Assembly (NCBI GenBank): GCA_002269645.1
Contig: NIVC01001524.1
Coordinates: 62,001-126,000 of the forward strand
Direction of reading: 5' to 3'
DNA from: Macrostomum lignano
Lineage: Eukaryota
Length of the DNA stretch: 64,000 bases
Part shown: positions 1,213-64,000 of the stretch, one piece after another
Numbering within the stretch: the first letter of the stretch is position 1
Layout: each line of letters opens with the position of its first letter
Program-made: the position numbers and the translations under genes
Notes under the pieces: generated by a model
The model's input: the letters and a program-made list of their open reading frames with translations, nothing else
What the model was told of the DNA's origin: nothing
The model's database searches: none

Positions 1213-1800
1213 ATGGGGGATGGCTTAATTGTTGAGGGAGGGGGTAGATTTCTGGGTGATTGTCAGATAGTCAAGTAGTACGGCTTAAGTAGCTTATTTA
1301 ATTCAGATAATGAAAAAAGTATATGTAAGTGATGCTAATTTCTGCTAAAAGGAAATACCAGCGTATTTATTAAAGGTTTGATTCTAATAAAGAGGGGTCT
1401 AAGGCCGTCAGGGATTGGCATATTGAGCTCCTGCGGACCAGAATATAACTAGGCCAATGACAATACGCACTAAGAGTTTTTGATTGAAAGGATAAGCACT
1501 ATTTGCTAATTGAGAAAGGGAAACACAAGCGCTAAACTGCTAAAAAGCCACCCTGAGGGGGGCTAAATGGCTAGTCCAAATATACTGAATCTCTAAGGTT
1601 TGTATGCTTGAATGAATGCTTGTTAACGCACTATAGAGATTGCAATTTTTGACCAATTTTGATCGCGTTTTTGCCAAAAGATTCAAAATTGTCTTTCAAA
1701 ATTCTTTGCACCATCTATATACTAAATATGGTATTTTGTACTAAAATCTCTGAGTAGCTAAATAAATTTATTTTAAAATAATTTTTAGTTTCTTTACACC

Positions 1801-2360
1801 GATGGCGTCAAGGGAACGCGATTTTCAAGTCGTTTTGGAACCCGAGTTCGAAGAAATACTGAAAAAAGCAACAAATGACGGCGATCTACAAAGCGTTGAC
1901 CATAAGATAGAAGAAATACGAGACGTAAAAAAGAGGGATGTGATATGCAGGACTGCAGCTTTACATTCATCAAGTGCAGATTTTTCTTCGCCGATGGCGT
2001 CAAGGGAACGCGATTTTCAAGTCGTTTTGGAACCCGAGTTCGAAGAAATACTGAAAAAAGCAACAAATGACGGCGATCTACAAAGCGTTGACCATAAGAT
2101 AGAAGAAATACGAGACGTAAAAAAGAGGGATGTGATATACAGGATTGCAGCTTTACATTCATCAAGTGCAGATTTTTCTTCGCCGATGGCGTCAAGGGAA
2201 CGCGATTTTCAAGTCGTTCTGGAACTTGAGTTCAAAGAAATACTGAAAAAAGCAACAAATGACGGCGATCTAAAGAGCGTTGAGCATATGGTAGAAGAAA
2301 TACGAGACGTAAAGATGAGGGATGATGTATGCAGGACTGCAGCTTTACATGCGTCAAGTG
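1801..2360 (+). repeat. Coding tandem triplication, 192-bp (64-aa) unit at the protein N-terminus
   Basis: GATGGCGTCAAGGGAACG starts at 1801, 1993 and 2185; copies 1 and 2 nearly identical. Confidence 0.9.
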
Positions 2361-5300
2361 AATGTATGCATAACCACTTTTCATGGAAAATATTGCAAAT
2401 ATTGCTGCAACGTATTTGTGATGAGCGTTTAAAAAGTCAGTGCTACATACAAGTAGCTGAAAATCTATGTCAGTTGAATGACAAAAGCTTTCACGAACCG
2501 CAAGACTCAGACAGAAGTTCAAGAGACCAATTTTACTTCGACATGGTGAAGACTGCTGCTAATTGGCAGAAATGGAAGCTTCTGGATACGTTGATTGAAA
2601 AAAGTACAGAGCAATTGAAAATTATTTGCTGCGAGGTGTCTGCAAAAGCTGCTGCAGATAATCAACAGTGGAAACGCGTGAGGTCGTATATCGAGAAGAT
2701 CGCCGACAACATAGTTAGGGCTCGTTGTTGCTTAGAGCTGGCTGAAGTTGCAGCTGGTTGCAGCCAGTCGGATGTGGCAACAGAGCTGAAAGCACTGGCT
2801 AATCAAAGCGCTAAAGCAAGGAAGAGTATGGCCGAGGATAATTTTATTGAAATCATAAAAATATTGCAGAGTAAATCGAACGAAAATGTTAAAGCCATTT
2901 GCTTTCATATATTAGAGGTCTATGAGAACGAAAAACTTGAGATGGAAAAAGCACTCGAGCTACTCAAAGGCACGACTACCACTGGCCGGCAGGCAGCAAG
3001 ATACGCTGGCCGAAAGGGGTACTTAGAAGTTTTGCGGCTAGTACTGATAAATCTATCCGATAAGTTTGAAATGCACGCCTGCGGTATGGTTGCTGCACAG
3101 TCAGCTGCTGAAGCCGATATGTTTAATGTCGTCAAGTTTCTTTTAGACAGCTGCACTGACAAAAGATTCAAGCATGCGCGCTGTCTGAAAGTTGCTGAAA
3201 TCGCTGCCGAGAGAACTCACTGCGAAATGGCTAAATATTGCGTTTGTGCCATCGATGATCCCGAGGCCAGAAATGATTGTTGCATGAGAGCGGCAGAAAA
3301 ATTCGCCTCGAATCGAGAAATATCAACAATGTGGTTCTTTGTCGAATCGATTGCAGATGAGCTGAAAGACCAGTGCTGTAGCGAGGCCACTGAGCCAGCT
3401 TCAAGAAATGGCGATCTGGAGACGGTAACTGATCTGGTGAACAGAATCAAAGACGAACGACGCAAAGATCTGTGCTGCAAGAATGCTGTAAAGGCTGCGT
3501 CAGATAACCAAAAATGGTCTGTAGTTAAATTTCTGGCAGAATCTGTCAGCTCAGATGACGGTAAAGATGACTGCTACGAAACCGCTGCAGAACGAGCCGC
3601 ATGGAGCGGAGAGGCAGAAGAAACGAAATTCTTTGTGTCAAAAATCGCTAATCCGCACCGGAAGGGTCAGAGCTATCTTAAGTCAGTTGAGTCAGCGGCC
3701 AGTAATCTGAAATTCAACGTCGTCAAATCATTAGTTCAGATGGAGTCAGTTACTCAGGTCCTGCGAAATGAAGGCTGTGAAAGAGCGATGAAGCACGCGT
3801 CCAAAGACAATTACCTTAATTTTGTTGAATTTCTCATTACAACCGTGTCTGACGATCGAGTTCGAGACAAGTGCTGCTTGACTGCCGTGGAGCACGCTGC
3901 ATTCAACGGTCACTCCAGAGTGGTGGACTACTTAAGGCGATCAATAAGTCCGTCTGCCGAGCAAGAATTCCTCCTGAAAGCGGTGATAGGTTCAGGAAGC
4001 GGCGGCCACCCTGAAGTGTTTCATATCGTATCCAGAGATTTTAATTACGACTTAGCAAAAATGGCCGCTGAATCAGCAGCCCAGTCCGGAAAAAAGGATA
4101 GCATGCTACATTTTTTGGACCAAATTAAAAATAAAAATGGCGACGTTGAAGAATGCAACCACATATGTGCAAGGGCAGGAGCTTCCTTTCATCACGAACA
4201 CATCGTAAACTACTTCGATATTCAGCCCCAATGGCTTAAGGAAGACAAAGACTTCGTGGATTTCTTTTCGAAGTTGGCGAGGGAAGGAAAGAATTCAATT
4301 CTTAAAAAACTTTTGCCTCGTATGAGTAAAGCTGAAACTCATCATCTTTTAACGGAATCAATTTCAAAAGGCTACGTCGCACTTGCCTTAGCGCTAGTGC
4401 CTTTTGTCTGCAAACAGCAAGTCGATCTGTCTGACAAAGATGGATCCACTGCTCTCATGCTGGCAGCTGATGCAGGTCACCACGAACTCATCGAGAAACT
4501 GATAAAGCACGATGCTTCAGTAAATGCTCAAGATAGTCTCGGTCGAACCGCTTTGACTCGAGCGTGCAACGCAGGTCACGTGCGTGTGGCCAAGTCTTTA
4601 ATAGACTCTGGGCGAATGCAAGCCATCGAGACAATCAGGGTCTGACTTGCGCGCAGCTTGCAGAGAATCGAGGACACACCGAGGTGCTGCGATTGCTGGA
4701 ATCGACCAGCCTCAGGTAATTTCAATATTACATTTAAATAGAAGTTTATTTATTAGAGAACAAACTGCATTAATGACTCTAAGCTACTGTTAATTTCCAA
4801 AATAATTGTCGATTGAGTCAAAATATTCTTTTCAGAAGCAACGACTGCAACAAAAAAAGCCTAAAACTACACGATTTGCTGAAAAAGTCCGGATTCACGA
4901 GTTCCAGAGCTCAGAGCGTGCAGGCAATGGCCGACTGCCTTCAAAGAGTTGCAATTTCTATTGTTCAAGGCGAAATAGAAATTACGGGTAGCTTCGCAGA
5001 GGGATGGGCTAATAGCCTAATGCAAGTAAATGGCAGAACAGCAGCTGAGTCAGACATCGACTGGACTGTGTTCATTGCTGGACTGATAATGCATTTGAAT
5101 AACCACTGCCATTGTCCACCCGGCACCAAGTTACGTGTGACAAACGGACACGCCCAAGTGAATGAAGGGTCCGGTAAGTTAAGAATATTTAGTGTAAAAC
5201 CGTACATGACACGCTAGTTAGTCAGACTAAAGTAATATAAAATGTTGGCCCCTCCGAGAGAAAAGAGTGGTTTGTGTGGTAGGTTCGTTGAAATAAAGCA

Positions 5301-7138
5301 TAATTATGAGGAGGCCATTTTATTCAAATAATATAGATATTACAGGTGCTTCTTTGAAACTGATCCCAGAAAAAATCCTGACAAATTTTAAATACGAGCT
5401 AAAAATCCTTTGACCGCTAAAAAGTTACCGTAAAGAGAATATCACTTCCGACGTTTTTAAGCCCGCATTCCTACTCATGCAGTCCAGAATTTTTTACTCA
5501 ACTATTATCCACCATATAGGAAGCCAGCCAGCAGTCACGACACCAGCAGGCGGTGTTCGACCAACACAGGACCTGTGCTATGCCATAAAGTGCTGCAGTA
5601 GCTATTGTACAGAAAACAGAAAATTGCTCAAAAAATTGGTTATACGCCCCAACGCTGACGATCCAGGACTACATGTTCATCTCGTCAGTGCTACCCGACC
5701 TACAAGGCAAACTCGTAACGAGCTCAGGGTGAGCTTCAGCTTACACGAAAAGAGGATCATGAGAAGCCTCTCTGATGTCCAGGGTCAACTCTTCACAGTA
5801 ATCAAGTTTATCTTCAAAAGATACTTACCCATCACACTGAAAACACCTGGACTCAAGACTTACCACGCAAAGACTCTGCTCTTCTTCATGCTCGAGAAGC
5901 ACGGAACCGAGGATTTTAATCTGGCTTGGCAACCGGAAAATCTGATTTCTCTTGTGAAAGAAGCTCTTGAAATGATGCTGAGCTTCATCGACTCGAGCAG
6001 CTCGCCCGATGAGTGCATGCCGCACTTCTTCATGTCAGACGCTCCGCTCTACTTCAAGAACGCTGGAATCGGCGGCGACTTCGACAACACGAAGTCGAGG
6101 GTTCGACTCCGACTGAGTGAGTTGAGATTCGGCATCGAAGGAGTAATTGAGCAATTCATGGAACAGCTGAGACCACTGCAGTCACAGAACTTCTATTTCC
6201 ATCCGTTCACCATTCTACCACTTACGCATCCAGCTAGAGTGAAAGAAGTCACGTCAAAGTACACTGATCAGTACCTACACCTAGCGGATGCTTACTGCGT
6301 AGTGCATCACTGCTTGCAGCTTCTCCAGTCAGACGACACTAATCAAGATGACCTCGTGATCCAAATCAGTCTGTTGGACCCGCTGAATTGGTGTAAATGC
6401 GCCTTTTTGTGTCTCACTGCCATGGCTCACCTCAAGTTTGGTGAGGCTAAGAAGGCTGAGATAACACTAACTGGACTTCAGAGTCACTCCATACATACTG
6501 CTTGGGACCCAGAGCTGTTCTCAAATCGTAGATTCAAGGACCGGAGTACGTGGGAAGTACCTCTCGACTTAGACTGGGCGTGGAGGTTCTGCTTTCCGTG
6601 CGACACTCCGCCTCGCTTTCCTTTTCTTCCTGAGTTCACGCAGTCTCTGCTCACTGCCAGACTGTCGCAGCCTCGGTGCTCACACCTGTACGTGAACTTC
6701 CGCTGCCTGAGCTGGAGTCTCCAAGCTGAGCTGCTCCGCGATCGAACACCCGAAAATGAAATCTCATTCGATGCTTGGAAGACTCAGCTGCAAGAGGACC
6801 TGGACTTGGAGGAGCTGCTCACCCTGGCTCACTACAGCAACAGTCGCGAGCATGTGGAGATCTGCTTGCGGCAGATGGAGATAGTAAAAGATGAGAGGCG
6901 CGTTGCCATGGAGAGGGTTGATAAAGATAAGCTTCAATTGGTCAAGAAAATATGGATGAGTGAGCTTTCCGACTTTGGTGCCGTGATAGAAGCCACTGAT
7001 TTGCTTCTCATTCAGTCAGGAATAGTGTCACGGGTCAAGAAAATTGGCAGTGTTCTCAGAATACTAGCGTCGCACTTCTTGATAGTTGTCGTGCTGATTG
7101 TTATTGTCATTTTCGTATCCTATCTTCCCGCTGTTTGA
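1802..7138 (+). CDS. Ankyrin-like repeat + Mab-21/cGAS-like nucleotidyltransferase (cGLR-type) protein with C-terminal TM helix; exons 1802-4715, 4836-5173, 5520-7138; about 1623 aa after one frameshift correction
   Basis: ANK repeats (DKDGSTALMLAADAGHHELIEKLI; DSLGRTALTRACNAGHVRVAKSLI; after the frameshift DNQGLTCAQLAENRGHTEVLRLL). GT-AG introns with matching phases 2 and 1. NTase motif GSFAEGW...SDID, third acidic residue in QDLCYAI, Mab-21 motifs LRVSFSLHEKRIM, LKTYHAKTLLFF, MPHFF. Hydrophobic tail HFLIVVVLIVIVIFVSYL. Confidence 0.85.
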
Positions 7139-12718: not shown

Positions 12719-14999
12719 ATGTCAAAAAGACGCCGTACCGAAGGCGATACGAATAAATCGCGACTTTTCCGCAACTGGCTTCATAAAAACTTACTGGACG
12801 AAGGTCCCGAACCAGAATCATCCCCCTCTACAGACCCAATTACTGCTAAAGAGGCTGTTTTGGAATCGCTCTCAGCTGTTCCCATCGAAAAATCTACTAC
12901 GACTGATGACTTTTTAAGAGAGCTGACTGAGGTAAACAGTTTTGATGACAGTCTTGTTTGGCAAGCTGTCAAGATTTTAAAACTCATGCCCACCCCACTA
13001 TTACTCACCTAAGCATGCATTTTTCCTCCCTTACTTCAGCCCGAGGAGCAACGTGGCATGGCGTGTGACCATGTAGAGTTTGACGACGTTTCGGCTGACA
13101 TGGATAACGAATCTGACTCCGAGAAGCTGTCCAATTATGACGATGATGAAGGGGAGGAAAATCAGAAGCCTACGATGGATACTTTGAATGAAGAGCTTCT
13201 TGTTTTTTTCTTCACGTTTAACATTTCAAACCGAGCCATGCAATTTCTTCTAAATGCGCTGGTCAGCCGCGGCCTTCCTGTTGCAAAAACACTTTACCGA
13301 CTTACTAAATCGACCCGTGAGTCAGTAAAGAAGTTCAACATGGGGAATGGCCACTTCTCCTATCTCGGAATTGCTTCGAACCTTGCTTTCTTACACCGGA
13401 GCGGAATGTTGGCTCTGATCAATCCAACGACAACTTCCGATGGAAGACAAGGGTACGAGGTTGATGCCGATTTTGGTATTGATGGCATGCCAATGTACAA
13501 CTCCTCCAATTATGCCGCTTGGCCGATTCTGGCAAAATTTTCTTGTTTTTCTCGCCCTCTTCCTGTCGCTGTGTACGCTGGTTTGGGCAAGCCCCCTCTC
13601 AATGAATATCTGGCCGATTTCTGCAAGGAGCTGGAGTCCTTCATGGCTGGTTTCATCGAAGTCGAGGGAGTCCTTATCCGCATCCGACGAGTCACTTTTA
13701 TCTGTGATTCACCAGCTCGGGCCTTCATTACTTCTACATTGGGTCATACCGCGCACCATGGATGCCCTTATTGTAGGGCGGTCGCCAAGACAGTCGACCG
13801 GCGAATTGTCTACCCGAAACAAGCTGGAGAATGTCGCACAGCCGAATTCTACCGAGCTAAAATGTAAGTCCTCCTTTTATGCTTCTTTATAAAGGCAGGG
13901 TAGACATGATAGATAGTAGACTGGGGAGCTTAAATAGAAAGGTGATTCGGTAGAAAGGGTAGATTTGGTGTAGATAATCTTGGTACATTAGGTAACACCA
14001 TCTTTCTTTGACCATTTAAATTTTTTTATTTGCAGGGAGTCAAATCAGCGGAAAGATTTGAGTCCTTTGCTGTTGCTTCCAGGCATCCAGCTGCCTGAAG
14101 CTTGCCCACCTGAGCCGATGCACCTGCTATTCCTTGGCGTGGCCAGGCGACTGTTTCACTTTTTGTTCGCCGTTGACGACGGTCGGCGTCGCAAAATTCG
14201 GCCTGATGCGATCACAAGCTTGTCTGATTATACCGAAGCGCGCCAGTCCTTCACGCCGACAAACTTTCAGCGGCGCCCGCGCAGAATTGACCAGGAACTG
14301 AGTCATTTCAAGGCAACTGAATTCCGCACTTGGGTGCTCTACGTAGGCCCCTACTTTCTGCGTAAATTTCTGCCGAGTGAACTGTACAGGCATTTTCTAT
14401 TATTCCACTTCGCCTGCTATATTCTATGCTCAGACCTCCTCCGAGATGCTGAGCTTTTTGAGATGGCTGAAGCCGCCATTCGTCTATTCGTCTACGATGC
14501 CTACCAACTGTACGGTGATAGTTTTTTAACACACAATGCCCATGTACTTTTACACCTGCCCGCATTTGCCAAGCAACGTGGAAACGTCTCTAATTTTTCA
14601 GCTTTTCCATTCGAAAATTATCTGTCTCACCTTAAGCGTCGGCTCCGTGTAACGCGTTTTGCTTCCGCTCACTTATTGAATCAAATGCTATGTATTCGCG
14701 AGTTGCTAACTACTGACCAAATTGCCCCTGTAAGGTATTCAGCTAAAAGTCCAGACAACTGCTGCATTGTGGATAGCAAGGTCATTCGCATAACTAGTGT
14801 ACTTGGCCACAAAGTGAGTGGTGCTGTTTTAACTTTTAAATCCAACTTGTATGATTATCCATACGAGTCTTCCAGATTAGGAATCGGAATTTTTGTTGAG
14901 ACGCGATCTGTAATTGTAGGCGTTCCCCAGAAGAAGTGTTTCTTGTTCCCCCGAAGTTCTGGAGCTTGGCTAGTCATTCCTCTTGCCGAAGCTGAGTAG
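12719..14999 (+). CDS. EnSpm/CACTA-type DDE transposase; exons 12719-12931, 13040-13863, 14036-14999 (666 aa, uninterrupted)
   Basis: Motifs FGIDGMP, WPIL, FICDSPARAF, GHTAHHGCPYC, EPMHLLFLGV, FKATEFR, HVLLHL, SAFPFENY; splice phases consistent. Confidence 0.8.
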
Positions 15000-21404: not shown

Positions 21405-22268
<864 letters not shown>

Positions 22269-25093: not shown

Positions 25094-25300
25094 ATGTCTG
25101 AGTTTGCTATGCAACGTTTGATTCGCATTATTGGCGAGTTGAAGGAGCGTCTACACGCCGTGGAAGACCGGTCTGTCGGTCTCGAGCGGCGACTGCTTTA
25201 CTTGGAATCACGATCGGTTTCGCAAGATTATGGGCTACGTACACTACAAGGTTGGCTGGGCGGAGTGGGGGCGGCGGCCTCCTCCTGTGTCTACTCCTAG
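25094..25300 (+). CDS. 68-aa antisense ORF with coiled-coil heptads
   Basis: MSEFAMQRLIRIIGELKERLHAVEDRSVGLERRLLYLESR, hydrophobic residues at heptad spacing. Confidence 0.35.
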   Translation: MSEFAMQRLIRIIGELKERLHAVEDRSVGLERRLLYLESRSVSQDYGLRTLQGWLGGVGAAASSCVYS

Positions 25301-25455
25301 TTCTATTATTCTGCTGCCTCTACCGGCGTCGTTACCAGGCCCTACCTGCCTAGTAAGCAAAATGATTGCATTGATTAGATTATTTAATAACAATATATAT
25401 TCGGGAAGTCTATTTTGTATGTCATAAACATGGTTATCAATCGGGTGTATAAGTG

Positions 25456-29700: not shown

Positions 29701-32700
29701 TTGGATCCTTTGAGATCAATGGCGTTCTTGAACTCTTGTTCCGTCATTGTTGGGGTTTCTGACTGGATTTCGGCAATTTCAAAGGCTTGGATTTCTGTAT
29801 CGAAAGATCCTATGTTGGTGTCTGGATATAGTGTCATTGGGGTTGCCGATTCGTTTGAAATGATGACTTGAACCTCTCCTGACTCGTCAGGGTATACCAA
29901 TTCGGGTGTAAGGCAAATGGGTTTCTTCTCTAGGATACGTTCGTTGGGTTCGAAAAGCATAGCTGGAGGTAGTTTCTCTCTGGCGATGGCTCTTGCGGAA
30001 ATTCGAGTTGTTTCCCATGGATTGAGATTGACTGTAGAGACTAATCTGATGCAGTTAACGGGTTCTTTTGTAGTGATAGCGAGGATGTCATAGCATTTCC
30101 CGTTGAGATGGATATTCTGTTGCTGATAGTTTACGAGCACGCCCTGATTTAGTTGAGATAAGTAATCGATGCCTAATAAGACTTGATAAGTTCCTGAACT
30201 CAAATTGGGAATAACGTGGAACTCAACGTCAGCCGTGGTGTCGCCAGCTTCCACAGGGAGGTTGATCATGCCGGATTGCTGTAGTCGTGAGCCTTGTACT
30301 CCTTGCAGTTCAACTGTGGCCGGCTTGAAGGTCCTGCCGTATCGCTTTGCTGTGGCTTCGTCGATTAAGGATCGTTCGGCTCCACTGTCGATCAGGGCTC
30401 GGCAGGATCGCGTTCCCACTTGAAGTCGGGTGATTGTGTACTTCTGCTTCTGGCCGTTGTTGACCGTCGCCACCATCGGAGGTGGCCAACTGGACTCTAT
30501 CTTCGGGTAGAGTCCTGTTGATGCTGGTGCTGGTGGCGTCCACGGTGGCGGGCGCTGTGGTGCCTGTCTGGTTGTCGTGGTCTCCTGCCGCGTGTTCTGG
30601 CTTGTCGAGTTCGCTACTAGCGGTGCTCGTAACTCCTGTAGCTCCTGCTGTTCTTGCTTTGCAGCAGCTTTGCGCTGGATCGTGCGGATGCCAGGACGTT
30701 GGTACTTCTGTTTGTTGAGTCTGTGGCAGATAAGGATCATTTGGTATAAAAGATATATGTAGAACCCAATGGCAGCTACTCCTACAGCGATATCGAAAAG
30801 ATTCACTCGCATGCCTAGCCATGGTAGCCAACTTGCTGGATCAAAGGTGCCTTCCGCTATGGTGGCATCTAACGGTGGAAGATGTATAGAGTGAGAGGTT
30901 TCTGACTTGGGCAGTTTGAAAACAGTTCTTAAGAACTCTCTCTGGTCATTTAGCTGGTTGTACAAGTCGTGTACTGTGACCGGGCTTTTGAGATCGGCTA
31001 TCCTGATGTCTCCATCAGGAGTGAATATGACATGCTGAATCTCTGGGGGTTTTATGAGGGTTACCCCCACGCTTCTCTTTCTAGCTTAGTGACCGTTTGC
31101 ACAGTAAATTTCGTAAAGTTGAGGTCTGTTTTGTAGATTTCGTCTCCTTTTGGTAGGAAATACGACGTTTGGTTAGAGCAATCGTGAAATGGCGGGTGTT
31201 CCTTTTGGATTTCCAGGGTTCTAACATCTAGAAAGCCTGTGTGGTTCATGTTGAATATCGTGAAGGCAATTGGTGGTTTGGTAAAGCAGATATTCTCATC
31301 CCATCTTGGTTGGTGAAAACGAAAGTTTCTGATGGGTAGGCACTTAGAAATGACTACATGCTGTGCTAGCGTGGTGGCTTTTAATTGGCTGTCTTTGAAC
31401 AAAGTGCGCGCTGCTAGGGTGGGCTGCATAAGAAAAAGATCTTTTATGTACCGAAACAGTGTTTGCTGATGCTTGCATTGTTGTAGTATCATGTTTCGAG
31501 TAAGGTCGCCTATTCTGTCTTCCATTGTGAGTTCTAGCCCTTGTAATTTTGCTGCTAGCGTTGTGTCCGATGTGAGGTCTCGTTTTGGTCTCTTAGCGGT
31601 GCTTGAATTGTTGAATGAACCTTCAATTATGCTGCGAAACTCTTGGTCTGAGCCGTGCACCTGGACTAGTTTACCTTGTTCCGACTTGTATAGCTTTACT
31701 GTCGTGTCTCCACATTGTAAGTCCTTAGTCTGAGGTGGATGTTTGAATGTGAGGGCAAACGTAGCGTCGTTAGACATGAACCATCCAGTGTGAATTTTGC
31801 CTTGAATGAATCTGTCTGTTTGATAGGGGCAGTCTATCTCTGCGCTGGGTGTCCATACTAGGCGGTATTGTCTATCTCCTCTCACTGTGTAGCTGAGATC
31901 ATAGTATTCCATTACGGCCCAGAGTCTGTCTGGTGCCTGTCGGTTCAGTGGCGAGTCCTTCTCTGCCGTGAGGCTAGTAGTCGTGGTACAGGTTCCTGTC
32001 TTGTAGTCGCATTGGCCTATAGGGAGGGCTAACGAAGACATCTTTTTCTCTTCCACAAAGAATGAGACCTGGGTGATTAGGACTGACACTGTTTGAGTAA
32101 AGGTTTGAGCTGTGCTGGCTGTAGGTTCCAATTCCTGGGTTGTCCACTTATGAGTAGTGAATCGTTTGGCTTGTCCCATAGTCTTAGCTCCTGCTTCTAA
32201 AGTCCCATCTTGGGTTCGGGTGTTTTCTTCCCATGTTTTACAATCGTCCTTCGAAACTGAATGTTGTTGCACAGTAACAGTCATGGCTGGACTTACCATC
32301 TCCGTTGAAAGACGGTTAAGAGCGGAATCTTTTGGCTTACTCGTGAACGTGTAGGTCTCTCGGTAACATATCTTCAGTGTAGACCGGTGTGATACCTGGT
32401 TCTCCTTGTAGACTGTGATGTTGATCGGTTGCCGATGCTGTTGAATGCTACTCGGGACTGTGCATTCGATGTCCGGAGGCAATTTGAAGGCTTGAAGGCT
32501 GTTCGCTTCTGGGCAGTAGAGTGGTGTGTCCACGTAGCTGCTGTGCTGTGCCGTTGTTGCGCTGCCAGCCGCGGTGCAGAACAGTATGAGCAGTAGTATT
32601 CGCAGCAGCCATCCTGTGGTTGAGGCTGTTCGTCGGCTTTGGCTCCATGTCGGTGTAGTTCTCGGCTGTCGAATCGCTATCTGTGGCTTGGGCTCGTCAG

Positions 32701-33037
32701 TGTCAGGACATTTCTCGATCTTCTGTGGTCGCTCTTGCTTCTCCGTCCGGTCGCTCTCGGAGCGCGGTGTTAGTGTCGCCGTCGTGATGTGGCCGATCTT
32801 GACCTTGACTGCCTTGCGAAGTTGTCGCTTGGCTTGAATGATGTCGTCGCGGGTTACCACTGGTTCCGTAACTGTCTCTTCTTGCTTGGTTGACTCTGCT
32901 GGAGTGTCCGTCGGTGGCTGTTGCTGAGGCTGCTCCTTGGTTACTTCTGCGGTTTGCCGTGGTTGCGGTGTTGGTGTCACCGCTGTATTGTAGCCAATCT
33001 TAATTATTCTTTTGCTAGCCGTACTAGCTGCCACCAC
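26777..33037 (-). CDS. Env(gB-like)-PR-RT-RNaseH-integrase polyprotein, about 2087 aa after three 1-nt corrections
   Basis: Signal-like WLLRILLLILFCTAAG, Cys-rich ectodomain, furin site KRPKR (31580-31594), TM AVGVAAIGFYIYLLYQMILIC, PR ALIDSGA, RT YRLCVDFRDLN and YVDD, RH SDASTKGIGAMLSQ, IN HHCC / DLVGP / TDNG / VERLH / GPY. Confidence 0.85.
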
Positions 33038-35644
33038 AGTTGTTACAGGGGGGATTCCTGTGCACCTAGAATACGACTAAATGCCACCAAAGTTGTAATA
33101 AAGCTATTTCTCCTTAACAAATCTACTGGTTATTAATTGTCTTTCTACTGGTAGCGCATGTACTTCTATTGGTAGCGTATGTACTTCTATTGTACTTTCT
33201 GGCCTGAGCGGTCTAATAGCACTGTCTATTCTATTCCTATACTTCCCCTAAAAATATTATTCTCTCAGTCCTGGGCGTTCCCTGGATCAGAGGGTCACAG
33301 CTTATGCTCTTTCTCTGCCCTGAGGCGATCTTTCCCTCGCTCTGAGGCGGTTCTCCTGCCCTGAGGCGAATTTACTATTACTGCCCTGAGGCGATTTCTC
33401 GCTTTTTAGCGGATCTCAATACTACTCCCGATTTGGGGGTTTTACTATAGAAATGAATAAGACACTCTGAACAATTTTCTGATCAAGTTTTAGCTACTGT
33501 TAGAACACACGAAAAGCACAAGTTGATTTCTTGGCCCACTCGGGGCTTCTATTTATACTAGAGTCTCTCATCAAGTCAAACAAATAATTGTGAAAAATAT
33601 TTTTGTAAATCACAACATTTAAACAAAAACACTAGTAATTTCTTTTTAGCGCGGATTTGAACTAAAGTTTCTAAGAAAACAAGTTACTATTAGCACTATC
33701 GTACAGTATCATACTATTATTAATGCACTGTCTCACTATGGCTTTAAATGAAGAGCAGATCGCGTCATCAATTAAAAAAATTGACATAATTGACAGACTG
33801 ACTATAAAATGTATGCTATATATATATGTATATCTATATATATATCTAGGCTTGTCTCCTACTCCCAGAGTCCCAGGCCTATAAGTATCAAAGTATGAAT
33901 AGGCCTAGGCCTATGACTTTGTTCTATGCTTTAATAGAAACAGAATGCATGTCTAGACCTAGTGATGTTGTCCATTAATAATTCATTAATCCATTAATAA
34001 TTCAGAAATTCAGTTACATACATAGAATATAGATCAGTATTTTTTGTTGTCTTTTGCATTTCATTATATTATATTTATATATACCTACCTAGTTCTAGCC
34101 CCTAGGCTAGGGCTAGGCTAGTTTTAGTGACCTAGCTAGTAAGTAAATCTTAATTAAATAGGTCTACTCTGTTTTTGTTTGTTTTATATATGCTTATCTA
34201 GATTTATAAATAGGTAGACTGACATATCTGTAAAACTTGGTTTTAATCCCTCCTTGATTTTAAACACTTAGGTTAAGAGTGTAATGTCTACTTCTAGTGA
34301 ATAGTGTTATAACTAGGCTTATCATTTTAATTTTAAAATAAAATAGGCCCTACTTTACTAAAAATTGTAATTGCTATATAGGGTATAGTTTTTATGAATT
34401 AGAATTAAACCTGGATGCTTAAATATAGGCTTATGGTTGTTAGAAAGTTATCTTAAGCCTTGAACTACTATTTGAAGAATATAGATAGGCATAGTAAAAT
34501 CTAAAAGTATTTATGCTAGATAGGCCTAGATGAATGATATGAAAAATATAGAATAGAAGAAAAACATAGGTCTAAATTTAATTAGACCATAGAACTTTTA
34601 CAAAAGTTATTACTCTGACTGTTTAAAAACATAACAACGATATTTGTGTTATATTTTAGTTATTTTGAATTAAATATTAATGTTTATAATCCTAGAACTT
34701 TATTACAATTTTCCCTTTCATTCATGCTACTTTACATGGTCAATATGGCATCGCTACTTATTGGTTCCAAGCTTGTCTTTATACCAAGTGGCAAAGTGGC
34801 AAGCATCCTATGATTGCTAAAAGAAAAAATGAAGCCAGCCTAAAGTAAAAATGCAACATGATAAAGAGCCCTAAAGTAGGCCCTATTACTAAAAGCTCTT
34901 ATAGACCTACTTTTATTGATAAGAAAGTAAGCTTAAGCTTTCTAGCAATATTGACTTTAAAATCTCAGTACTGGACTTTTTCAGTTTCAATTATTAGCAA
35001 ACCAATTTAATTGTACATTGTAGTAAAAGATGCACCTAGTTGTTTTCAGATGTTTCTGCTTCTATTTTTTGCTAAAAGTATTGTTCACCCTAATTTCATT
35101 TTTCCATTGTACCATTAGTATTTTTCTATTGAATGTGTGCTTAACTTTTGTTTTAAAGTTGACTTATTTTTTGCTTGTGCTATTTCCCTTGTGCATACAA
35201 GTTTTATTTCATGAGCATATATGTGTATTTGTTTACATTTTCACAAATAAATATGTCTACTTTATTTTGATTGTTCAATGACATTTGATTTTGTTCTGGC
35301 AGCTTACTAGCACAATACTAAAAGTGCAGAATCAAATAAGAAAGTCCTGTCATAACTCGTGTTCTTTATTGGAATTAGATTAGTGCATCGGGGTTTTATA
35401 AATGGATTACTAAACAGATCTGGGAAGATTTGATAAGACGGACAATGCATTCAATTGGTAAAGCTTAATACATCTTACAAGATCTGCCCAGATCTCCTAA
35501 GATCTGCTCGTGCAGACCGTGCAAGATCTTCCTGCAGATCTTGTAAGTTCTGCCTATATATTTAAATAGTGCAGATCTGTTACGTTCTTGCAAGAACGTA
35601 GCGAGAAGCTCCAGACAGATCTGCTAAGAAATGGCATGACGATT

Positions 35645-42590: not shown

Positions 42591-43090
42591 ATATCGGGTA
42601 ATGTTGTGATAGAAAACTGCAGTTGGATACAGTAGCTATATTTACAGTACTGCGCAATAATAATTTCATCACAAGTACCATTTGTGATGAGTCAAGGTAG
42701 GTTACATTGTTTAAGAAAAGTTAGGAGGATGAAAGCAAAAAAATCAAAGTCTAGGCTTACTAGACTTTAAAATTTACCATCTTTCTGCATCTAGATTATT
42801 GCCTTAAGATGCCGATTGTGTCGGCGAAACATGTCGCTTGAACATGAAAGAAATTGCGATTTGGTGTTATTTGATGCGATTTGATGTAATAGGAATAAAT
42901 TATAAATGATGACTATTTTGTTCCGTAACATTTAAGCTTCAGGAAAATTGCGAGTAAATCGACACAAAAACATTGGAATGGCCAGAGTTTTAGAAAAAAG
43001 TAGACTTGGTTTTATAAAGATGCGAATACCTTTTGCAACTACGTAAGCAATAAAAATATTTAAAATACGTCTGAAAATCAAACCAAAAAA

Positions 43091-43738
43091 ATGAGCGGCG
43101 ATGAAAATGAGGATACGAGATTGATGGAATTATTCACCCAGCAATTCGAACGTTTTGAAGACAGTGGATTGAAAAATGAATACCGTTTTGCGACTGTTAA
43201 ATATCCATCGATTCAAGGTCGCATAAAACTCGTTTTGTTCATAGTCAACAAGGTGGCCGGCCAAGATTCCCGGGATCAGTTTGCTGTCAGCTGTCACCAT
43301 TTAGAACTGGTGAAGTTTCTTGTGAAGACAGTCGCTGACCAAAGTGAGAGAGATCAGTGCTGCAAGGAAGCTGCGGAATCTGCTGCATCGAGTGGTTATT
43401 TAGAAGTGGTGAAGTATCTTGTGGGGACAGTCGCTGACCAAAGTGTGAGAGATCAGTGCTGCAAGGAAGCTGCGGAATCTGCTGCATCGAGTGGTTATTT
43501 AGAAGTGGTGACGTATCTTGTGGGGACAGTCGCTGACCAAAATCTGAGAGATCAGTGCTGCAAGGAAGCTGCGGAATCTGCTGCATCGAGTGGTTGTTTA
43601 GAAGTGGTGACGTATCTTGTGGGGACAGTCGCTGACCAAAGTGAGAGAGATGAGTGCTGCCGAGAGGCTGCTTTTTTTGCAAGCCAGCACACGGAAGTTT
43701 TGCGGTTACTACTGAAGACGAAAGCCAGAAATTTATGA
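43091..43738 (+). CDS. 215-aa protein of 33-aa Cys-Cys ankyrin-like repeats; paralog or fragment of the 1802 gene family
   Basis: 99-bp tandem unit encoding VGTVADQSVRDQCCKEAAESAASSGYLEVVTYL; same pattern as RDKCCLTAVEHAAFNGHSRVVDYL in the 1802 ORF; ends HTEVLRLL. Confidence 0.6.
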   Translation: MSGDENEDTRLMELFTQQFERFEDSGLKNEYRFATVKYPSIQGRIKLVLFIVNKVAGQDSRDQFAVSCHHLELVKFLVKTVADQSERDQCCKEAAESAASSGYLEVVKYLVGTVADQSVRDQCCKEAAESAASSGYLEVVTYLVGTVADQNLRDQCCKEAAESAASSGCLEVVTYLVGTVADQSERDECCREAAFFASQHTEVLRLLLKTKARNL

Positions 43739-44259
43739 TGGAGCTGTCAAAGAACTGTTGAATTGGAACTGTGGAAGGCAGGATCAAATTAAGTTAGAAA
43801 TGACTTCAGATGTACGAAAAGCGCGGTTCGGAGGTAGTTAATCATTTCGAATTCATGTTAGGTGTCGAAACGCTTGCTGTTATTCAAGAATTTGATGAGT
43901 TTTTGCTAATTTTGAGTTCTTGTCCAAAATTGTATTATTAATCATCAATTAAATATTGGATTATTTCAAGTGTTTGGATCTTTTAATAATGCCGTTCCTG
44001 CCACAGGAACAGGTTTAGCACCACAACACAATCTGAATTTGTTTGTACCTTTTCTTTTGCAGGGTATTTTTCACGAATATTCTGTGCAGAAGCAGCTTTG
44101 CCTTTACTTGTTGCAGCACCTCCAAACACAAACGGAAGTCCAAGATGCAAAAAATGAAAACTACTGCTCAGGGGCGTCGCCATGGATTTTATGGTGGGGG
44201 GACAAAGCCAAGAATTCGACATGTACATGTACATTATTTTCAGAATCGGTGTTGTCAGC

Positions 44260-46718
44260 GCTCATTTTGGCGCCGCAGGCACTTTTTTGAGCGGCGCAGG
44301 CACCATTTTGGCGCCGCAGGCATTTATTTTGGCGCCACATGAACTTATTTTAGCGCGGCAGACACTCATTTTAGCGCCGCAGGCACTCATTTTAGCGCCG
44401 ATGGCACTCATTTTAGCGCCGCAGGCACTCGTTTTGGCGCCACAGGCACTCATTTTAGCGCCACAGGCACTCATTTTAGCGCCGCAGGCACTCATTTTAG
44501 CGCCACAGGCACTCATTTTAGCGCCACAGGCACTCATTTTAGCGCCGCAGGCACTCATTTTAGCGCAAATGGCACTCAGTTTAGCGCCGCAGACACTCAT
44601 TTTGGCGCCTCAGGCATTTATTTTAGCGCCACAGGAACTCATTTTGGCACCACAGGAACTCATTTTGACGCCGCAGGCACTCAATTAAGCGAAAATGGCA
44701 CTCAGTTTAGCGCCGCAGACACTCATTTTGGCGCCGCAGGCATTTATTTTGGCGCCACAAGAACTCATTTTAGCGCCGATGGCACTCAGTTTAGCGCCGC
44801 AGGCACTCATTTTGACGCCGCAGGCACTCATTTTAGCGCCGATGGCACTCAGTTTAGCGCCGCAGGCACTCATTTTGACGCCGCAGGCACTCATTTTAGC
44901 GCCGATGGCACTCAGTTTAGCGCCGCAGGCACTCATTTTGACGCCGCAGGCACTCATTTTAGCGCCGCAGGCACTTATTTTGGCGCAGCAGGCACTTATT
45001 TTGGCGCCGCAGGCACTTATTTTGGCGCCGCAGGCACTCATTTTGTCGCCGCAGGCACTCGTTTTGGCGCCGCAGGCACTCGTTTTGGCGCCACAGGCAC
45101 TCATTTTAGCGCCACAGGCACTCATTTTAGCGCCACAGGCACTCATTTTGGCGCCGCAGGCACTCATTTTGTCGCCACAGGAACTCATTTTGGCACCGCA
45201 GGCACTCATTTTGACGCCGCAGGCACTCATTTTGGCGCCACAGGAACTCGTTTTAGCGCCGCAGGCACTCATTTTAGCCCCGATGGCACTCAGTTTAGCG
45301 CCGCAGGCACTCATTTTGGCGCCGCAGGCTTTTATTTTGGCGCCACAGGAACTCATTTTGTCGCCGCAGGCACTCGTTTTGGAGCCGCAGGCACTCGTTT
45401 TGGCGCCACAGGCACTCATTTTAGCGCCACAGGCACTCATTTTAGCGCCACAGGCACTCATTTTGGCGCCGCAGGCATTTATTTTGGCGCCACAGGAACT
45501 CATTTTGTCGCCGCAGGCACTCGTTTTGGCGCCGCAGGCACTCGTTTTGGCGCCACAGGCACTCATTTTAGCGCCACAGGCACTCATTTTAGCGCCACAG
45601 GCACTCATTTTAGCGCCACAGGCACTCATTTTAGCGCCGCAGACACTCATTTTGGCGCCGCAGGCACTCATTTTAGCGCCGCAGGCACTCATTTTGGCGC
45701 CGCAGGCACTCATTTTAGCGCCGCAGGCACTCATTTTGGCGCCACAGGCACTCATTTTAGCGCCACAGGCACTCATTTTAGCGCCGCAGGCACTCATTTT
45801 AGCGCAAATGGCACTCAGTTTAGCGCCGCAGACACTCATTTTGGCGCCGCAGGCATTTATTTTGGCGCCACAGGAACTCATTTTGGCGCCGCAGGCACTC
45901 ATTTTAGCGCCGCAGGCACTCATTTTAGCGCCGCAGGCACTCATTTTGGCGCCACAGGAACTCATTTTGGTGCCACAGGCACTCATTTTAGCGCCGCATG
46001 CACTCATTTTAGCACCGCAGGCACTCATTTTAGCGCCACAGGCACTCATTTTAGCGCCTCAGGCACTCATTTTAGCGCCGCAGGCACTCATTTTAGCACC
46101 GCAGGCACTCATTTTAGCGCCGCAGGCACTTATTTTAGCGCCACAGGCACTCATTTTAGCGCCTCAGGCACTCATTTTAGCGCCGCAGGCACTCATTTTA
46201 GCTCCGCAGGCACTCATTTTAGCGCCGCAGGCACTCATTTTAGCGCCGCAGGCACTCATTTTAGCGCCACAGGCACTCATTTTAGCGCCACAGGCACTCA
46301 TTTTAGCTCCGCAGGCACTCATTTTAGCGCCGCAGGCACTCATTTTAGCGCCACAGGCACACATTTTAGCACCGCAGGCACTCATTTTAGCGCCACAGGC
46401 ACACATTTTAGCACCGCAGGCACTCATTTTAGCGCCGCAGGCACTCATTTTAGCTCCGCAGGCACTCATTTTAGCGCCGCAGGCACTCATTTTGGCGCCG
46501 CAGGCACTCATTTCAGCGCCGCAGGCACTCATTTTAGCTCCGCAGGCACTCATTTTAGCGCCGCAGGCACTCATTTTGGCGCCGCAGGTACTCATTTCAG
46601 CGCCGCAGGCACTCATTTTAGCGCCGCAGGCACTCATTTTAGCTCCGCAGGCACTCATTTTAGCGCCGCAGGCACTCATTTTGGCGCCGCAGGCACTCAT
46701 TTTAGCGCCGCAGGCACT
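44260..46718. repeat. 21-bp minisatellite (GCACTCATTTTAGCGCCGCAG), more than 110 copies, inside MITE-like flanks
   Basis: Unit read directly; flanks CAGGGGCGTCGCC at 44168 and GGGGGGACAAAGC at both ends. Confidence 0.97.
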
Positions 46719-48173
46719 ATATTTTTTTCACCTTGAAGCAAAACTATTGATTTTCATAACGGGTCATAAGGTTGGGTGGGGGGGGGGACAAAGCATTGGC
46801 AGTCCCCCCCCACAAGTTTTACTGGGGGGACATGTCAGGGGGAGCAGAGCTTTAGCAGCATTGTAAATCTGAAAGAGTAAAATTAGTTAAGCATAGTACG
46901 ACAGGAGTTTAGAAGCTTTTTTCAATAGCTAATGGTTTGCCTTCAAGAAAACTCTCCGCGATTAAACTTTAGTTAAATTGATCTTGTAAGATATTTTAAC
47001 TGATTGCCCCGATTTTTTTACTTTGTTTTCGATCAAAATTTGAATATTTTACTCTAAATGCATGTACTGTATTGACTTTGCGAACTAAATCTATCTGTTT
47101 GGCTATTGGTAAATGATTAATGTCCGAAGATCTGTCTGATAATGCCAATTCAAGTTAACTTGCTCTAATCCTGCGTTTTTTTCGTATTTTGTCGTATTTT
47201 GAAAAGTACCCCAAAGCACAGAGGGTGTGCATGATTGATGATTAAAAAGTCAGGGCCGCTGTTCACCCTATGTGTGAAATTGATTTTTCTCCTTCGTTTA
47301 TAGGCCGAACTATCCAATCTTTTCTACTAGCTCGTACATGTATAATTAAGTAGTATATCTAGAACCGGTTTATCCATCTTTTTAGCGCAGCCACACGTGG
47401 ATCAATTAACGTATTTTGTTCACGAGTATCTCCTTCGAAAATGACCCGAAACTGTGGATTGGAAGATCGTCTTCATATTATCATATCACAAGTACAATGC
47501 GTAATTACATTTACATGTAGCTGTTGCGATAAAGTTTACAGGGTCGAAGCATAAAGAAATGCATGCATAACTGAACTTTTGAGTTAATTTTCTTATAAAA
47601 AAGCTTTTTTAAGACCTTTTGATTCTGTACCTGCGAGCTAGTTGAATGAAGAATTTTTTAAAAGTTTTTTAATACATCGGCTGAAGTAATCGCAAATATG
47701 CGGCAATGATTTTTAACACAGGATACATATTTTAGACACTTTTGAACAACTTTCTTGATACTTTTTTGAAGAAAGAAAGACAAATAACTGCTCCAAGTTC
47801 TCGCCATTGGCTCCGGAACAATTCTTCACTCCCCACGCACTGTCTGTCTGTCTGCTTCCTTCTCCCTTTCCTCAGCCCTCTTCTGTCTCTCATTCTCTTT
47901 GCCGTCCCGCTTCTCACAAGGCTGGGGGGTTCGGCGAATCCAAATGCCTCAGCAACCGACCCGGACAGCGCGCGGAGTTCAGCCAACCCCCGGTCCTGCC
48001 ATCGTCAAAAAACGCCCACTCAAGCACGAGCGCCGCCCTGAATCCTTCTGTCCTGCCTTCGTCTACACCAACCAGGAGCATCGGCTGCGCCACCTTGCGA
48101 TATAGAAAGTAAAAATTTGGTCAGAAATCAGCGGAGGTAATTGCAGCAATTTGTTAACTATATTTTTTATTAG

Positions 48174-49631: not shown

Positions 49632-49742
49632 GTAAGAAAGATTCTTATTGTTAAAATCTGACAGCATTCCGAGGCATTAGCTCTGTTCAACTTGCATTAA
49701 TTAGCTGTATTTAGCCGTGCCAAGATTTACACAGCAGCGAAA

Positions 49743-51449
49743 ATGTTGAGTTATCTTCAGTCGCTTATCGAAGACCCAAGGTCGCAGAGAAAGTTCGTTC
49801 TGGTCATTGTTTGTATCGCTCTGCTCCTAGACAACATGCTGTATATGGTGATCGTGCCCATCATTCCGCACTACCTGACCAACGTTACTAAGGAGTTGAG
49901 CGACCGTTACAGTCAGGTGTACATCTATAGCCAAAATGTCACTACTATGGTGAATGACACCGTAAGGCATCACATTAACAAAACCAGCATGACCAGATGG
50001 GGCATGCGGCGTTCCGAGTCAGCCGAGAGACAAATTGGCATGCTATTCGCTAGCAAAGCTTTTGTGCAGCTTCTCATTAACCCCATCAGCGGCACCATTA
50101 TTGACAAAGTCGGCTACGATCGACCCATGATGTTTGGACTGACGGTAATCTGCCTGTCAACAGTGGTGTTTGCCTTCGGGCACTCCTACGGGGTGATGAT
50201 GCTTGCTCGGAGTCTGCAAGGCGTTGGATCCGCGTTTGCCGATACCTCGGGACTGGCCATGATTGCCGATCGTTTCACCGAAGAATCCGAACGGACGAAA
50301 GCGCTCGGTATTGCACTGGCTTTCATCTCATTCGGATCTCTGGTTGCGCCGCCGTTTGGAGGTATCTTGTACGACCACTTCGGCAAGGTCCTGCCCTTCC
50401 TAGTGCTGTCCAGTATCGCTCTGATCGACGGCTGTCTCATGCTCATAGTGATGAAGCCAGTAAGAATTGAACGTCGTACCCAGAAGGCTACAGGAGACCT
50501 GCCGAAAGGTACGCCAATTTGGCGCCTTCTTAGAGACCCGTACATTGCCACCTGCGCTGGAGCCTTGGCCATGTCGAATGTCTCTCTGGCTTTTCTAGAG
50601 CCAACCATTTCAATGTGGATGGAAGAAAAACTGAAGACAACCAACACCGAGGAGGGCATGGTTTGGCTGCCATCATTTTTTCCACACGTGCTGGGCGTTT
50701 ACAGCACCGTTTATCTGGCTCGACGTTTTCCGAAATATCAATGGCTCATGGCTGCCGTTGGTTTGTCGCTTGAAGGCTTCTCCTGCTTGTGCGTACCATT
50801 CTGCAACAGCTTCGTGACGCTGATGATACCAATCTGTCTGCTGTGCTACGGCATCGCTCTGGTGGACACCGCCCTCCTGCCGACCCTCGCATTCGTCGTC
50901 GACCATCACTACTCCTCGGTGTACGGATCTGTGTACGCCATCGCCGATATTTCTTACAGCATGGCCTACGCGTTCGGGCCTGTGGTGGCGGCCGGTTTAG
51001 TTAAATCAATCAGCTTCACCGGAATGAATGTCGTCATCTTTCTGACTAACGTTCTCTACGCTCCGATTCTGCTGGTACTACGCAATGTCTACAAATACGA
51101 AGGTGAATTTATCGAGGGAGAAGGCGAGAACGTCGGCGGAGGCGGCGGCGGTGGCGAGGGCGTTTCGATTCAGAATGCGCCGAAGCCGCACATGCGGACC
51201 TACATGCTAAACGGTTCGGATTCAGTCGGGGCAAAACCACTGGACAGCAAAGACGACCCGTATGCTTCCATGCAGCCTCACGACGGCGGAAGCAACGTGC
51301 CGGCTTTTCAGACGGACTTCTCGAATGCATTCGGTCCTAACAGCGCAGGCAACGACTTTGCTCCGCCACGACCGCCGCCCCCGCCGCCCCCGCCGACCTA
51401 TACTCAGGCGCAGCAGCCGGGTTGGAAGAATCAGGGGCCGTTGGACTGA
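49743..51449 (+). CDS. VAChT: Vesicular acetylcholine transporter (SLC18A3 / unc-17 ortholog), intronless, 568 aa
   Basis: LVIVCIALLLDNMLYMVIVPIIP, GMLFASKAFVQL, ARSLQGVGSAFADTSGLAMIADRF, LEPTI, SVYGSVYAIADISYS; adjacent to ChAT. Confidence 0.97.
   Translation: MLSYLQSLIEDPRSQRKFVLVIVCIALLLDNMLYMVIVPIIPHYLTNVTKELSDRYSQVYIYSQNVTTMVNDTVRHHINKTSMTRWGMRRSESAERQIGMLFASKAFVQLLINPISGTIIDKVGYDRPMMFGLTVICLSTVVFAFGHSYGVMMLARSLQGVGSAFADTSGLAMIADRFTEESERTKALGIALAFISFGSLVAPPFGGILYDHFGKVLPFLVLSSIALIDGCLMLIVMKPVRIERRTQKATGDLPKGTPIWRLLRDPYIATCAGALAMSNVSLAFLEPTISMWMEEKLKTTNTEEGMVWLPSFFPHVLGVYSTVYLARRFPKYQWLMAAVGLSLEGFSCLCVPFCNSFVTLMIPICLLCYGIALVDTALLPTLAFVVDHHYSSVYGSVYAIADISYSMAYAFGPVVAAGLVKSISFTGMNVVIFLTNVLYAPILLVLRNVYKYEGEFIEGEGENVGGGGGGGEGVSIQNAPKPHMRTYMLNGSDSVGAKPLDSKDDPYASMQPHDGGSNVPAFQTDFSNAFGPNSAGNDFAPPRPPPPPPPPTYTQAQQPGWKNQGPLD

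Positions 51450-63337: not shown

Positions 63338-64000
<663 letters not shown>

Follow-up and report, generated by a model that had tools for sequence, protein, structure and literature searches.

Known retroelements with gB-type envelopes

The BEL/Pao long terminal repeat (LTR) elements Tas and Anakin carry an envelope gene (env) resembling those of herpesvirus glycoprotein B (gB) and chuviruses, and in these elements env follows the integrase. The nematode endogenous retroviruses (NERVs) of Sacco et al. 2022 reportedly have a continuous gag-env-pro-pol open reading frame (ORF), a Nyamiviridae-like env and extra small ORFs, and their clade is said to be monophyletic and confined to chromadorean nematodes. 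GAG-ENV-POL errantiviruses with an ENV of the HSV/gB type (HSV, herpes simplex virus) were described in Platyhelminthes, Nematoda and Bryozoa by Chary and Hayashi (PMC13524379); the accessible part of that paper lists nine Platyhelminthes elements and cites the BEL/Pao elements with a gB/chuvirus-like env. Here, an env of this type is described in a stretch of 64,000 nucleotides of Macrostomum lignano DNA (contig NIVC01001524.1, positions 62,001 to 126,000; hereafter, the window), where it lies on the minus strand at 32614-30729 within a Ty3/gypsy LTR element. A first-pass annotation of the window had proposed a captured class III fusogen and had stated that gB-like env was already known in some invertebrate LTR elements. 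The latter statement is borne out by the accessible text of PMC13524379, and the headline of that annotation is a rediscovery.

The window family and the elements of PMC13524379, as far as these are described in the text available, have in common a Ty3/gypsy pol, an env between gag and pol, two hydrophobic segments flanking env, multiple copies and nearly identical LTRs. One flatworm row of that paper (863-bp LTR, approximately 10.6 kb, primer-binding site (PBS) GCGAGATCACCA) agrees in its dimensions with a distant family of the window's genome, the C4296 type, which has an 855-bp LTR, a length of 10.6 kb and the same PBS type as GCGAGATCACCA. The env of the window family is 24-30% identical to that of the C4296 type. 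The window family itself (1,037-bp LTR, 13.8 kb, PBS TGGTTCCCTGACC) matches none of the nine rows, eight of which list no LTR or PBS. Compared by the description available, it is a previously undescribed family of the published GAG-ENV-POL type with a gB-type env. The main text of PMC13524379, in the part accessible, makes no mention of a fused or single ORF, a polyprotein, antisense or accessory genes or splicing, and no link to gB was found in the accessible part of the Cer1 CERV paper (PMC10309623). With the BEL/Pao elements, the window family shares a class III env; it differs from them in its Ty3/gypsy pol and in an env that precedes the protease instead of following the integrase.

It is considered that, with a probability of roughly 0.8, the env of the window represents the envelope module of a Ty3/gypsy GAG-ENV-POL element (an "errantivirus" in the wide sense) that has been active recently and has the layout Gag-[signal]-Env-[TM]-PR-RT-RH-IN, where TM is a transmembrane helix, PR the protease, RT the reverse transcriptase, RH the RNase H and IN the integrase. 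The gB-like fold, the gene order, the single frame, recent copying and purifying selection on env are established for the family by the comparisons below.

The env gene encodes a gB-type class III glycoprotein

The env gene of the window copy is split over two frames (33076-31061 and 31085-29127) by a frame break at 31061-31085; four close siblings are open across the same site. It begins with a hydrophobic segment at 32614-32558 (best 11-residue hydropathy value, 2.96), a putative internal signal sequence with a signal-peptidase cleavage site predicted by eye at the small residues that end it. A hydrophobic segment also precedes env in the C106, C4296, C717, C247 and C4628 polyproteins. The gB-type ectodomain with domains I-IV follows at 32557-31064, as delimited by profile, Pfam, fold and motif scan, and then the C-terminal part of the ectodomain, a Trp-rich membrane-proximal region and a second TM helix (31085-30729, with the helix at 30800-30729). 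The 494 codons at 32545-31064 contain exactly 12 cysteines and six N-glycosylation sequons, and a furin site, KRPKR, is located at 31594-31580. According to hydropathy and motif scans, a signal, sequons, a furin site and a C-terminal TM anchor are all present.

Most of what the first-pass annotation had read in this gene was found again: a signal-like segment, about 12 cysteines, KRPKR and a TM helix, as well as all eight quoted motifs in the quoted order on the minus strand, namely, AAKLQ (starting at 31555), QQCKHQ (31483), QPTLAAR (31426), ATTLAQHVVISKCLPI (31378), CFTKPPIAF (31288), GFL (31237), HDC (31186) and YF (31162). Two of these readings need correction: the hydrophobic segment lies inside the protein, as gag leads into it in the full siblings, and the protein extends beyond the TM helix, as the same frame runs on into the protease and the RT. 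No Met codon occurs upstream of the hydrophobic segment within its frame, and env has no start codon of its own.

The single env sequence matched PF24664 (Monjiviricetes_fusion) in Pfam with 32.1 bits (cut-off, 27; E 4.1e-8) and PF00606 (Glycoprotein_B) with E 0.0017, which is below the Pfam cut-off; PF24664 was matched by 10 of the 17 env family members. A profile of 17 sequences (A1) matched Epstein-Barr virus (EBV) gB in the PDB with E 4.9e-14 over three collinear stretches; of its 14 PDB matches, the 12 best were all herpesvirus gB. With a profile of 54 sequences (A2), all 52 PDB matches were herpesvirus gB (best E 5.2e-22), and the best of them spanned profile positions 10-464, nearly the whole ectodomain. 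Across the 54 sequences, C402 and C420 are invariant, and C278, C357 and C456 are nearly so. The ESM Atlas gave weak leads only (0.82; the second match was a PF24664 cluster), and a word-index protein search with A1 gave one match, a result that is no proof of absence.

The fold of env was also studied. The AlphaFold pLDDT confidence score was 31 without an alignment and 86.6 with one. When the model was compared with the PDB by Foldseek, herpesvirus gB came first (Kaposi's sarcoma-associated herpesvirus (KSHV) gB, E 1.2e-18). Among the viral models of BFVD, Nyavirus G was the best match (E 1.7e-25); it headed the list together with gB, the G protein of Beihai rhabdo-like virus 3 and entomopoxvirus proteins, and chu-like G ranked below these. 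In a fold search independent of Foldseek, the top six rows were gB chains (Z 8-11), and domain IV of pseudorabies virus (PRV) gB was matched at Z 11.1 with a root-mean-square deviation (rmsd) of 4.0 over 164 residues. Rabies and Chandipura G came after gB, and Thogoto and GP64 further down; PH domains were matched at Z 5-6 by model residues 33-320. The model displays the multi-domain architecture of gB: an elongated beta domain I, a PH-like domain II, a long central helix as domain III (residues 327-373) and a beta crown as domain IV. A trimer model of residues 200-485 scored 0.31, below the mark.

Profile and model evidence therefore confirms that the product of the minus-strand gene is a class III fusion glycoprotein of the gB type, with putative fusion activity. 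The class assignment made in the first-pass annotation is thus upheld, the Foldseek comparison of the AlphaFold model having matched both gB and nyamivirus G significantly. Among the relatives named there, gB stands; the nearest viral folds are nyamivirus G and gB, and the chuvirus type ranks lower. In common with the gB of EBV, KSHV, human cytomegalovirus, HSV and PRV are the domain order, the Cys pattern of domains III-IV, a furin site before the central helix and the fold of domain IV. Unlike herpesvirus gB, the protein is approximately 150 residues shorter, is only 9-18% identical in sequence and is part of a retroelement polyprotein, and the element encodes no gH/gL partner.

Structure of the element and of the window copy

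The full element is a 13.8-kb Ty3/gypsy LTR element with a single frame, gag-env-pro-RT-RNaseH-integrase. In the window copy, a Pro-rich cytoplasmic linker of approximately 100 aa and an in-frame aspartic protease (DSG at 30389; PF13975, E 4.5e-9) follow env on the minus strand at 30728-30153, and frame 31085-29127 joins the TM helix, the protease and the start of the RT. The RT, the RNase H and an integrase, the latter comprising H2C2, a core and a tail of the GPY/F type, were identified by Pfam at 29432-26777 (minus strand); the best PDB match of pol was Ty3-G Gag-Pol (E 2.4e-51), and the RT frame is broken near 29190 and 28990. A polypurine tract (PPT) and the 3' LTR (1037 bp, 24239-23203, with TATA...TATA ends) occupy 24256-23203 on the same strand. 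The earlier idea of a captured env stands insofar as a gB-type env is located in an LTR element; env is not a separate ORF, however, but a module of the gag-env-pol polyprotein. The capture is probably ancient, judging by the same layout in nematode polyproteins (PMC13524379, accessible part).

Upstream of env, the window copy retains only a remnant of the low-complexity linker that ends gag (33001-32615, minus strand). The match between the window and the siblings ends at 33001, beyond which the siblings run into a gag with three zinc knuckles, whereas the window copy starts abruptly at 33001 and has no 5' LTR, PBS or gag. No LTR pair was found inside the window because the 5' LTR is deleted. 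An element lacking gag by design was considered and rejected, since the siblings carry gag and the window copy lost it. An empty-site allele at C284 in the same genome joins window position 32998 to 23202, and the 4 bases AAGA at the window junction are common to the flank and the element. This microhomology fits a later deletion of the 5' LTR and gag or a misjoin. Considering the 5' deletion and the frame breaks, the ORFs of the window copy are not intact, which applies to the copy and not to the family. The copy is a dead, 5'-deleted insertion that is unable to work alone; because it is truncated and broken, infectivity, if any, would have to belong to the family.

Siblings, families and selection

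A search of the window's genome for env, in which 83 of 293 candidates were scored, gave at least 84 matches: four at 97-99% identity, three at 62% and dozens at 25-35%. Sixteen of the 84 lie in open frames of at least 2,450 aa. Complete elements are found in three close siblings, whose paired LTRs are 99.9% identical and have TATA ends; all three show 5-bp target duplications and a PPT. Their frame runs from a gag with three CCHC zinc knuckles through the hydrophobic segment, env and TM helix to the protease, RT, RNase H and integrase, and their PBS begins TGGTTCCCTGACC, which we take to correspond to tRNA-Glu. Four related families contain unbroken Met-to-stop polyproteins of 2,439-2,859 aa with a zinc knuckle, TM, env, TM, protease, YxDD motif and integrase in this order. 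The PR-RT-RH-IN order of Ty3/gypsy elements was found, and the siblings have the gag-env-pol order together with paired LTRs, PBS and PPT. The LTR ends are TATA...TATA and not TG...CA in the window copy and in C1189, C1405, C1878 and C4628. Target duplications are 5 bp long in the window family and 4 bp long in the C106, C4296 and C247 families.

In comparison with the sister family, the ratio of nonsynonymous to synonymous differences (pN/pS) was 0.27 for env, with synonymous sites saturated, and 0.14 for the RNaseH-integrase region; env is under purifying selection. Trees were built with FastTree (12-24 rows, unrooted, with rows of insufficient coverage dropped). The env families of the genome formed one clade with support of 1.0, apart from nematode-labelled proteins in these small trees, and the env, RNase H and integrase trees recovered the same three subclades.

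Outside the genome, 62 of 63 phmmer matches fitted the env profile, and in 11 of the 63, including a 2,517-aa Globodera protein, a zinc knuckle, env and protease are present in one chain. Among the 20 of 63 homologues that were looked up, those with names are nematode (Globodera, Meloidogyne, Heterodera, Bursaphelenchus) and Macrostomum lignano proteins. Most outside homologues skip a segment of approximately 40 residues that the env proteins of the genome carry between domains I and II. The env of two families, C247 and C1884, contains an insert of 200 aa that is rich in Thr, resembles a mucin and is located between two furin-type sites (L043:6537-8633, L061:4207-6396). The continuous gag-env-pro-pol ORF is reportedly common to the NERVs, and the best BFVD match, Nyavirus G, agrees with the envelope described for them. 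In the small unrooted trees, the env clade of the window's genome stands apart from the nematode-labelled proteins, and its close named relatives are from Macrostomum lignano.

That the best Pfam family and the best BFVD folds belong to glycoproteins of negative-strand RNA viruses is what would be seen if env were an endogenised chuvirus- or nyamivirus-like glycoprotein that merely happened to lie in a retrotransposon, or if it were a fusogen domesticated by the host. Such an origin of the locus is hardly credible, because env is in frame with gag and the protease in many copies, co-diverges with pol and lies between LTRs that are accompanied by target duplications. An empty-site allele exists for the window locus, and env has no start codon of its own.

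Proposed life cycle

The combination of an internal signal with a stop-transfer helix is the topology of flavivirus and alphavirus polyproteins. By analogy with this established membrane biology, the topology and processing of the errantivirus-like polyprotein may be outlined as follows. Gag would be made in the cytosol, and the internal signal would then thread the ectodomain into the endoplasmic reticulum. Cleavage of this signal by signal peptidase would free Gag, whereas the second helix would stop transfer and leave Pol on the cytoplasmic tail of Env. Furin would prime Env by cutting KRPKR, and the element's protease would later free itself or Pol at the linker between Env and the protease. 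Gag, Env trimers and Pol would gather at one membrane and bud as enveloped particles, which would fuse with a neighbouring cell, probably a germline or stem cell, by class III loop insertion and hairpin formation. The likely purpose would be enveloped passage between cells of one animal, as in Drosophila gypsy.

Several findings weigh against the gB-type reading or against an envelope module working in this way. With the single env sequence as a phmmer query, no PDB chain was found at E<=10, so that the likeness to gB requires a profile or a fold. The Foldseek TM-scores to gB were only 0.27-0.39 with large rmsd, because the domains are hinged differently. Each of the three full close siblings is broken somewhere in the assembly. 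In the window copy, loop 1 is polar and loop 2 is weakly hydrophobic. An output of Gag, Env and Pol at 1:1:1 is odd for a retroelement, so that splicing or a ribosomal event may have escaped detection. Herpes gB requires gH/gL. According to PMC13524379, it is unknown how gB-type errantiviruses enter cells.

Fusion loops and the variable block

Fusion loop 1 was predicted, from its position in the model and the model's secondary structure, at the tip of the strand pair 53-70/87-95 (32335-32295, minus strand). A block of approximately 40 nucleotides at this loop is wholly different between two groups of copies that are otherwise 99% identical (L001-L005): the window copy and C368 have a longer, more polar version, and C1189, C1405 and C1878 have the other. 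Both candidate fusion loops at the tip of domain I are present in the model, and they are more hydrophobic or aromatic in siblings and in other families than in the window copy.

This strong variation of loop 1, polar in the window and C368 copies, the weaker constraint on env than on RNaseH-integrase and a layout in which Pol is tethered to a TM helix by design would also suit a gB-like module that served as a membrane anchor, a budding scaffold for Pol or a means of superinfection exclusion, with transposition taking place within one cell. We regard this, the main rival reading, as unlikely. An anchor would need the helix alone, whereas families that are only 24-32% identical have all retained a full ectodomain of 500 aa, complete with 12 cysteines, the furin site and every domain, and aromatic residues occur in the same loops of other families.

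Accessory ORFs between pol and the 3' LTR

ORF2, a 260-aa orphan on the minus strand (26616-25834), is open and is 42-43% identical in the sister family (pN/pS, 0.49). It had no match in Pfam, the PDB, the ESM Atlas or protein databases, and a word-index protein search with its alignment also gave none, which is no proof of absence. In two families, its ATG stands directly after CAG, a possible splice acceptor, and by analogy ORF2 may be a spliced accessory protein. The possibility that it is a displaced gag was rejected, since gag lies upstream in the siblings. Contigs of 8.4-12.4 kb on sibling L057 bridge gag, env and pol (runs X1, X3 and X10, from three studies and guessed to be RNA, and X16, whose kind is not stated), and no joint skipping env or reaching the ORF2 acceptor is listed in them. 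As rare forms are lost from such contigs and the strand is not recorded, they are neither evidence of transcription nor evidence against splicing.

A small antisense ORF is located on the plus strand at 25094-25353; it encodes 86 aa in siblings, and its frame is broken near 25270 in the window copy. Its product has a heptad-like N-terminus, a Gly-rich hinge, one TM, a Cys-Cys pair and a basic tail. Antisense ORFs of 67-86 aa are present in five subfamilies (L031:7056, L049:2736, L087:5866, L044:4059 and L092:8948), in which the Cys-Cys pair is invariant and basic residues follow. Among the genome matches (41-100% identity), 30 of 31 contained no stop. In a DNA-guided alignment, identity by codon position was 0.62/0.72/0.40, a coding-type periodicity, and two versions are annotated as unnamed proteins in public sets. 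Pfam gave only sub-threshold, generic TM matches. The window-type and C247-type small ORFs are 25-29% identical, so that their homology rests on anatomy and position.

Published sORF2/FAST-like proteins (sORF2 of the MDG1 group; FAST proteins of reoviruses) are defined, in the accessible part of 10.1101/2025.03.14.642691, by a length of 60-210 aa, one TM, at least three K/R among the 15 residues that follow the TM, an N-terminal MGxxxS/T myristoylation motif, an ectodomain of 10-50 aa and sense orientation, in which all the candidates of that study lie. The window-type small ORFs agree in size, TM and basic patch. Together with the conservation, the open frames, the codon periodicity and the public annotations given above, this agreement could suggest an accessory protein of the FAST/sORF2 type, remodelling membranes so that the element can pass between cells. 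Such a role is doubtful: MGxxxS/T is present in none of the five subfamily ORFs and all are antisense, unlike the published candidates; they also differ in their position 3' of pol, the Cys-Cys pair and the longer N-terminal part of the window type, and the element already has a fusogen in its env. The generic Pfam matches and the homology by anatomy and position also count against it. Rival readings of the same ORF are a viroporin, an exclusion factor or, as with Vpu, an antagonist directed at a host restriction factor. By analogy, its product may at best be a small viral membrane accessory and is not a member of the sORF2/FAST-like proteins. Extra ORFs, some with TM domains, are known from rotifer LTR elements (PMC5408684, accessible part).

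ORF3, a 105-aa orphan (24777-24460, minus strand) with a narrower conservation, was found by tblastn at 65-69% identity in C947 and C1113 and at 39% in C1674; of 11 loci tried, seven gave no match and one a marginal match, and no Pfam match was obtained. In the sister families C4296, C717 and C391, one to three RING-finger-like ORFs after pol (L041:8391; L046:1106 and 1839; L059:1467, 2160 and 2970) replace ORF2 and the antisense ORF, and it is possible that they are captured ubiquitin ligases. The antisense ORF, ORF2, TATA LTRs with 5-bp duplications and the loop 1 swap were not found in the accessible text of PMC13524379. Neither the antisense ORF nor the window family was found described in the literature searched; figures, GitHub files, Repbase and Sacco 2022 may hold one.

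A far-reaching combination of these features may be conceived, in which the elements are retroviruses that have an envelope and a polyprotein strategy like that of flaviviruses, Pol is packaged as the tail of Env, the antisense product is a FAST-like helper or trigger of gB that replaces gH/gL, loop 1 is a cassette whose exchange swaps tropism, and the RING ORFs take the accessory slot in sister families. There is little likelihood that all of this holds together.

Surroundings of the element

The upstream flank at 33002-33740 contains short repeats, a purine tract and a PBS-like TGGTGGCAGC stretch and was found elsewhere only at C284 of the same genome; it may be part of another LTR element that received the insertion. 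A high-copy repeat (approximately 45 matches at 92-96%) follows at 33736-35500. On the plus strand, a 574-codon frame at 5414-7138 encodes a Mab-21 C-terminal domain of the cGAS-like family (E 1.2e-5), and ankyrin-repeat frames, a major facilitator superfamily (MFS) transporter and a DUF4218 transposase-like frame were found at 1766-4645, 43064-43738, 49701-51449 and 13992-14999. A 21-bp tandem array of more than 110 units and (ATCT)n microsatellites are located at 44178-46866, 21790-22204 and 63367-63997.

Biological significance

If the far-reaching combination of features described above is true, the elements would amount to a minimal system of stand-alone gB fusion that occurs naturally in a tractable invertebrate. 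Long open polyproteins are present in at least three young lineages of the genome, so that expression, topology and cell-to-cell spread could be followed in the animal itself. From the single-frame layout, an unusual biogenesis is predicted in which Pol is carried on the tail of Env, and the antisense membrane ORF, ORF2 and the RING ORFs of the sister families are candidate accessory genes.

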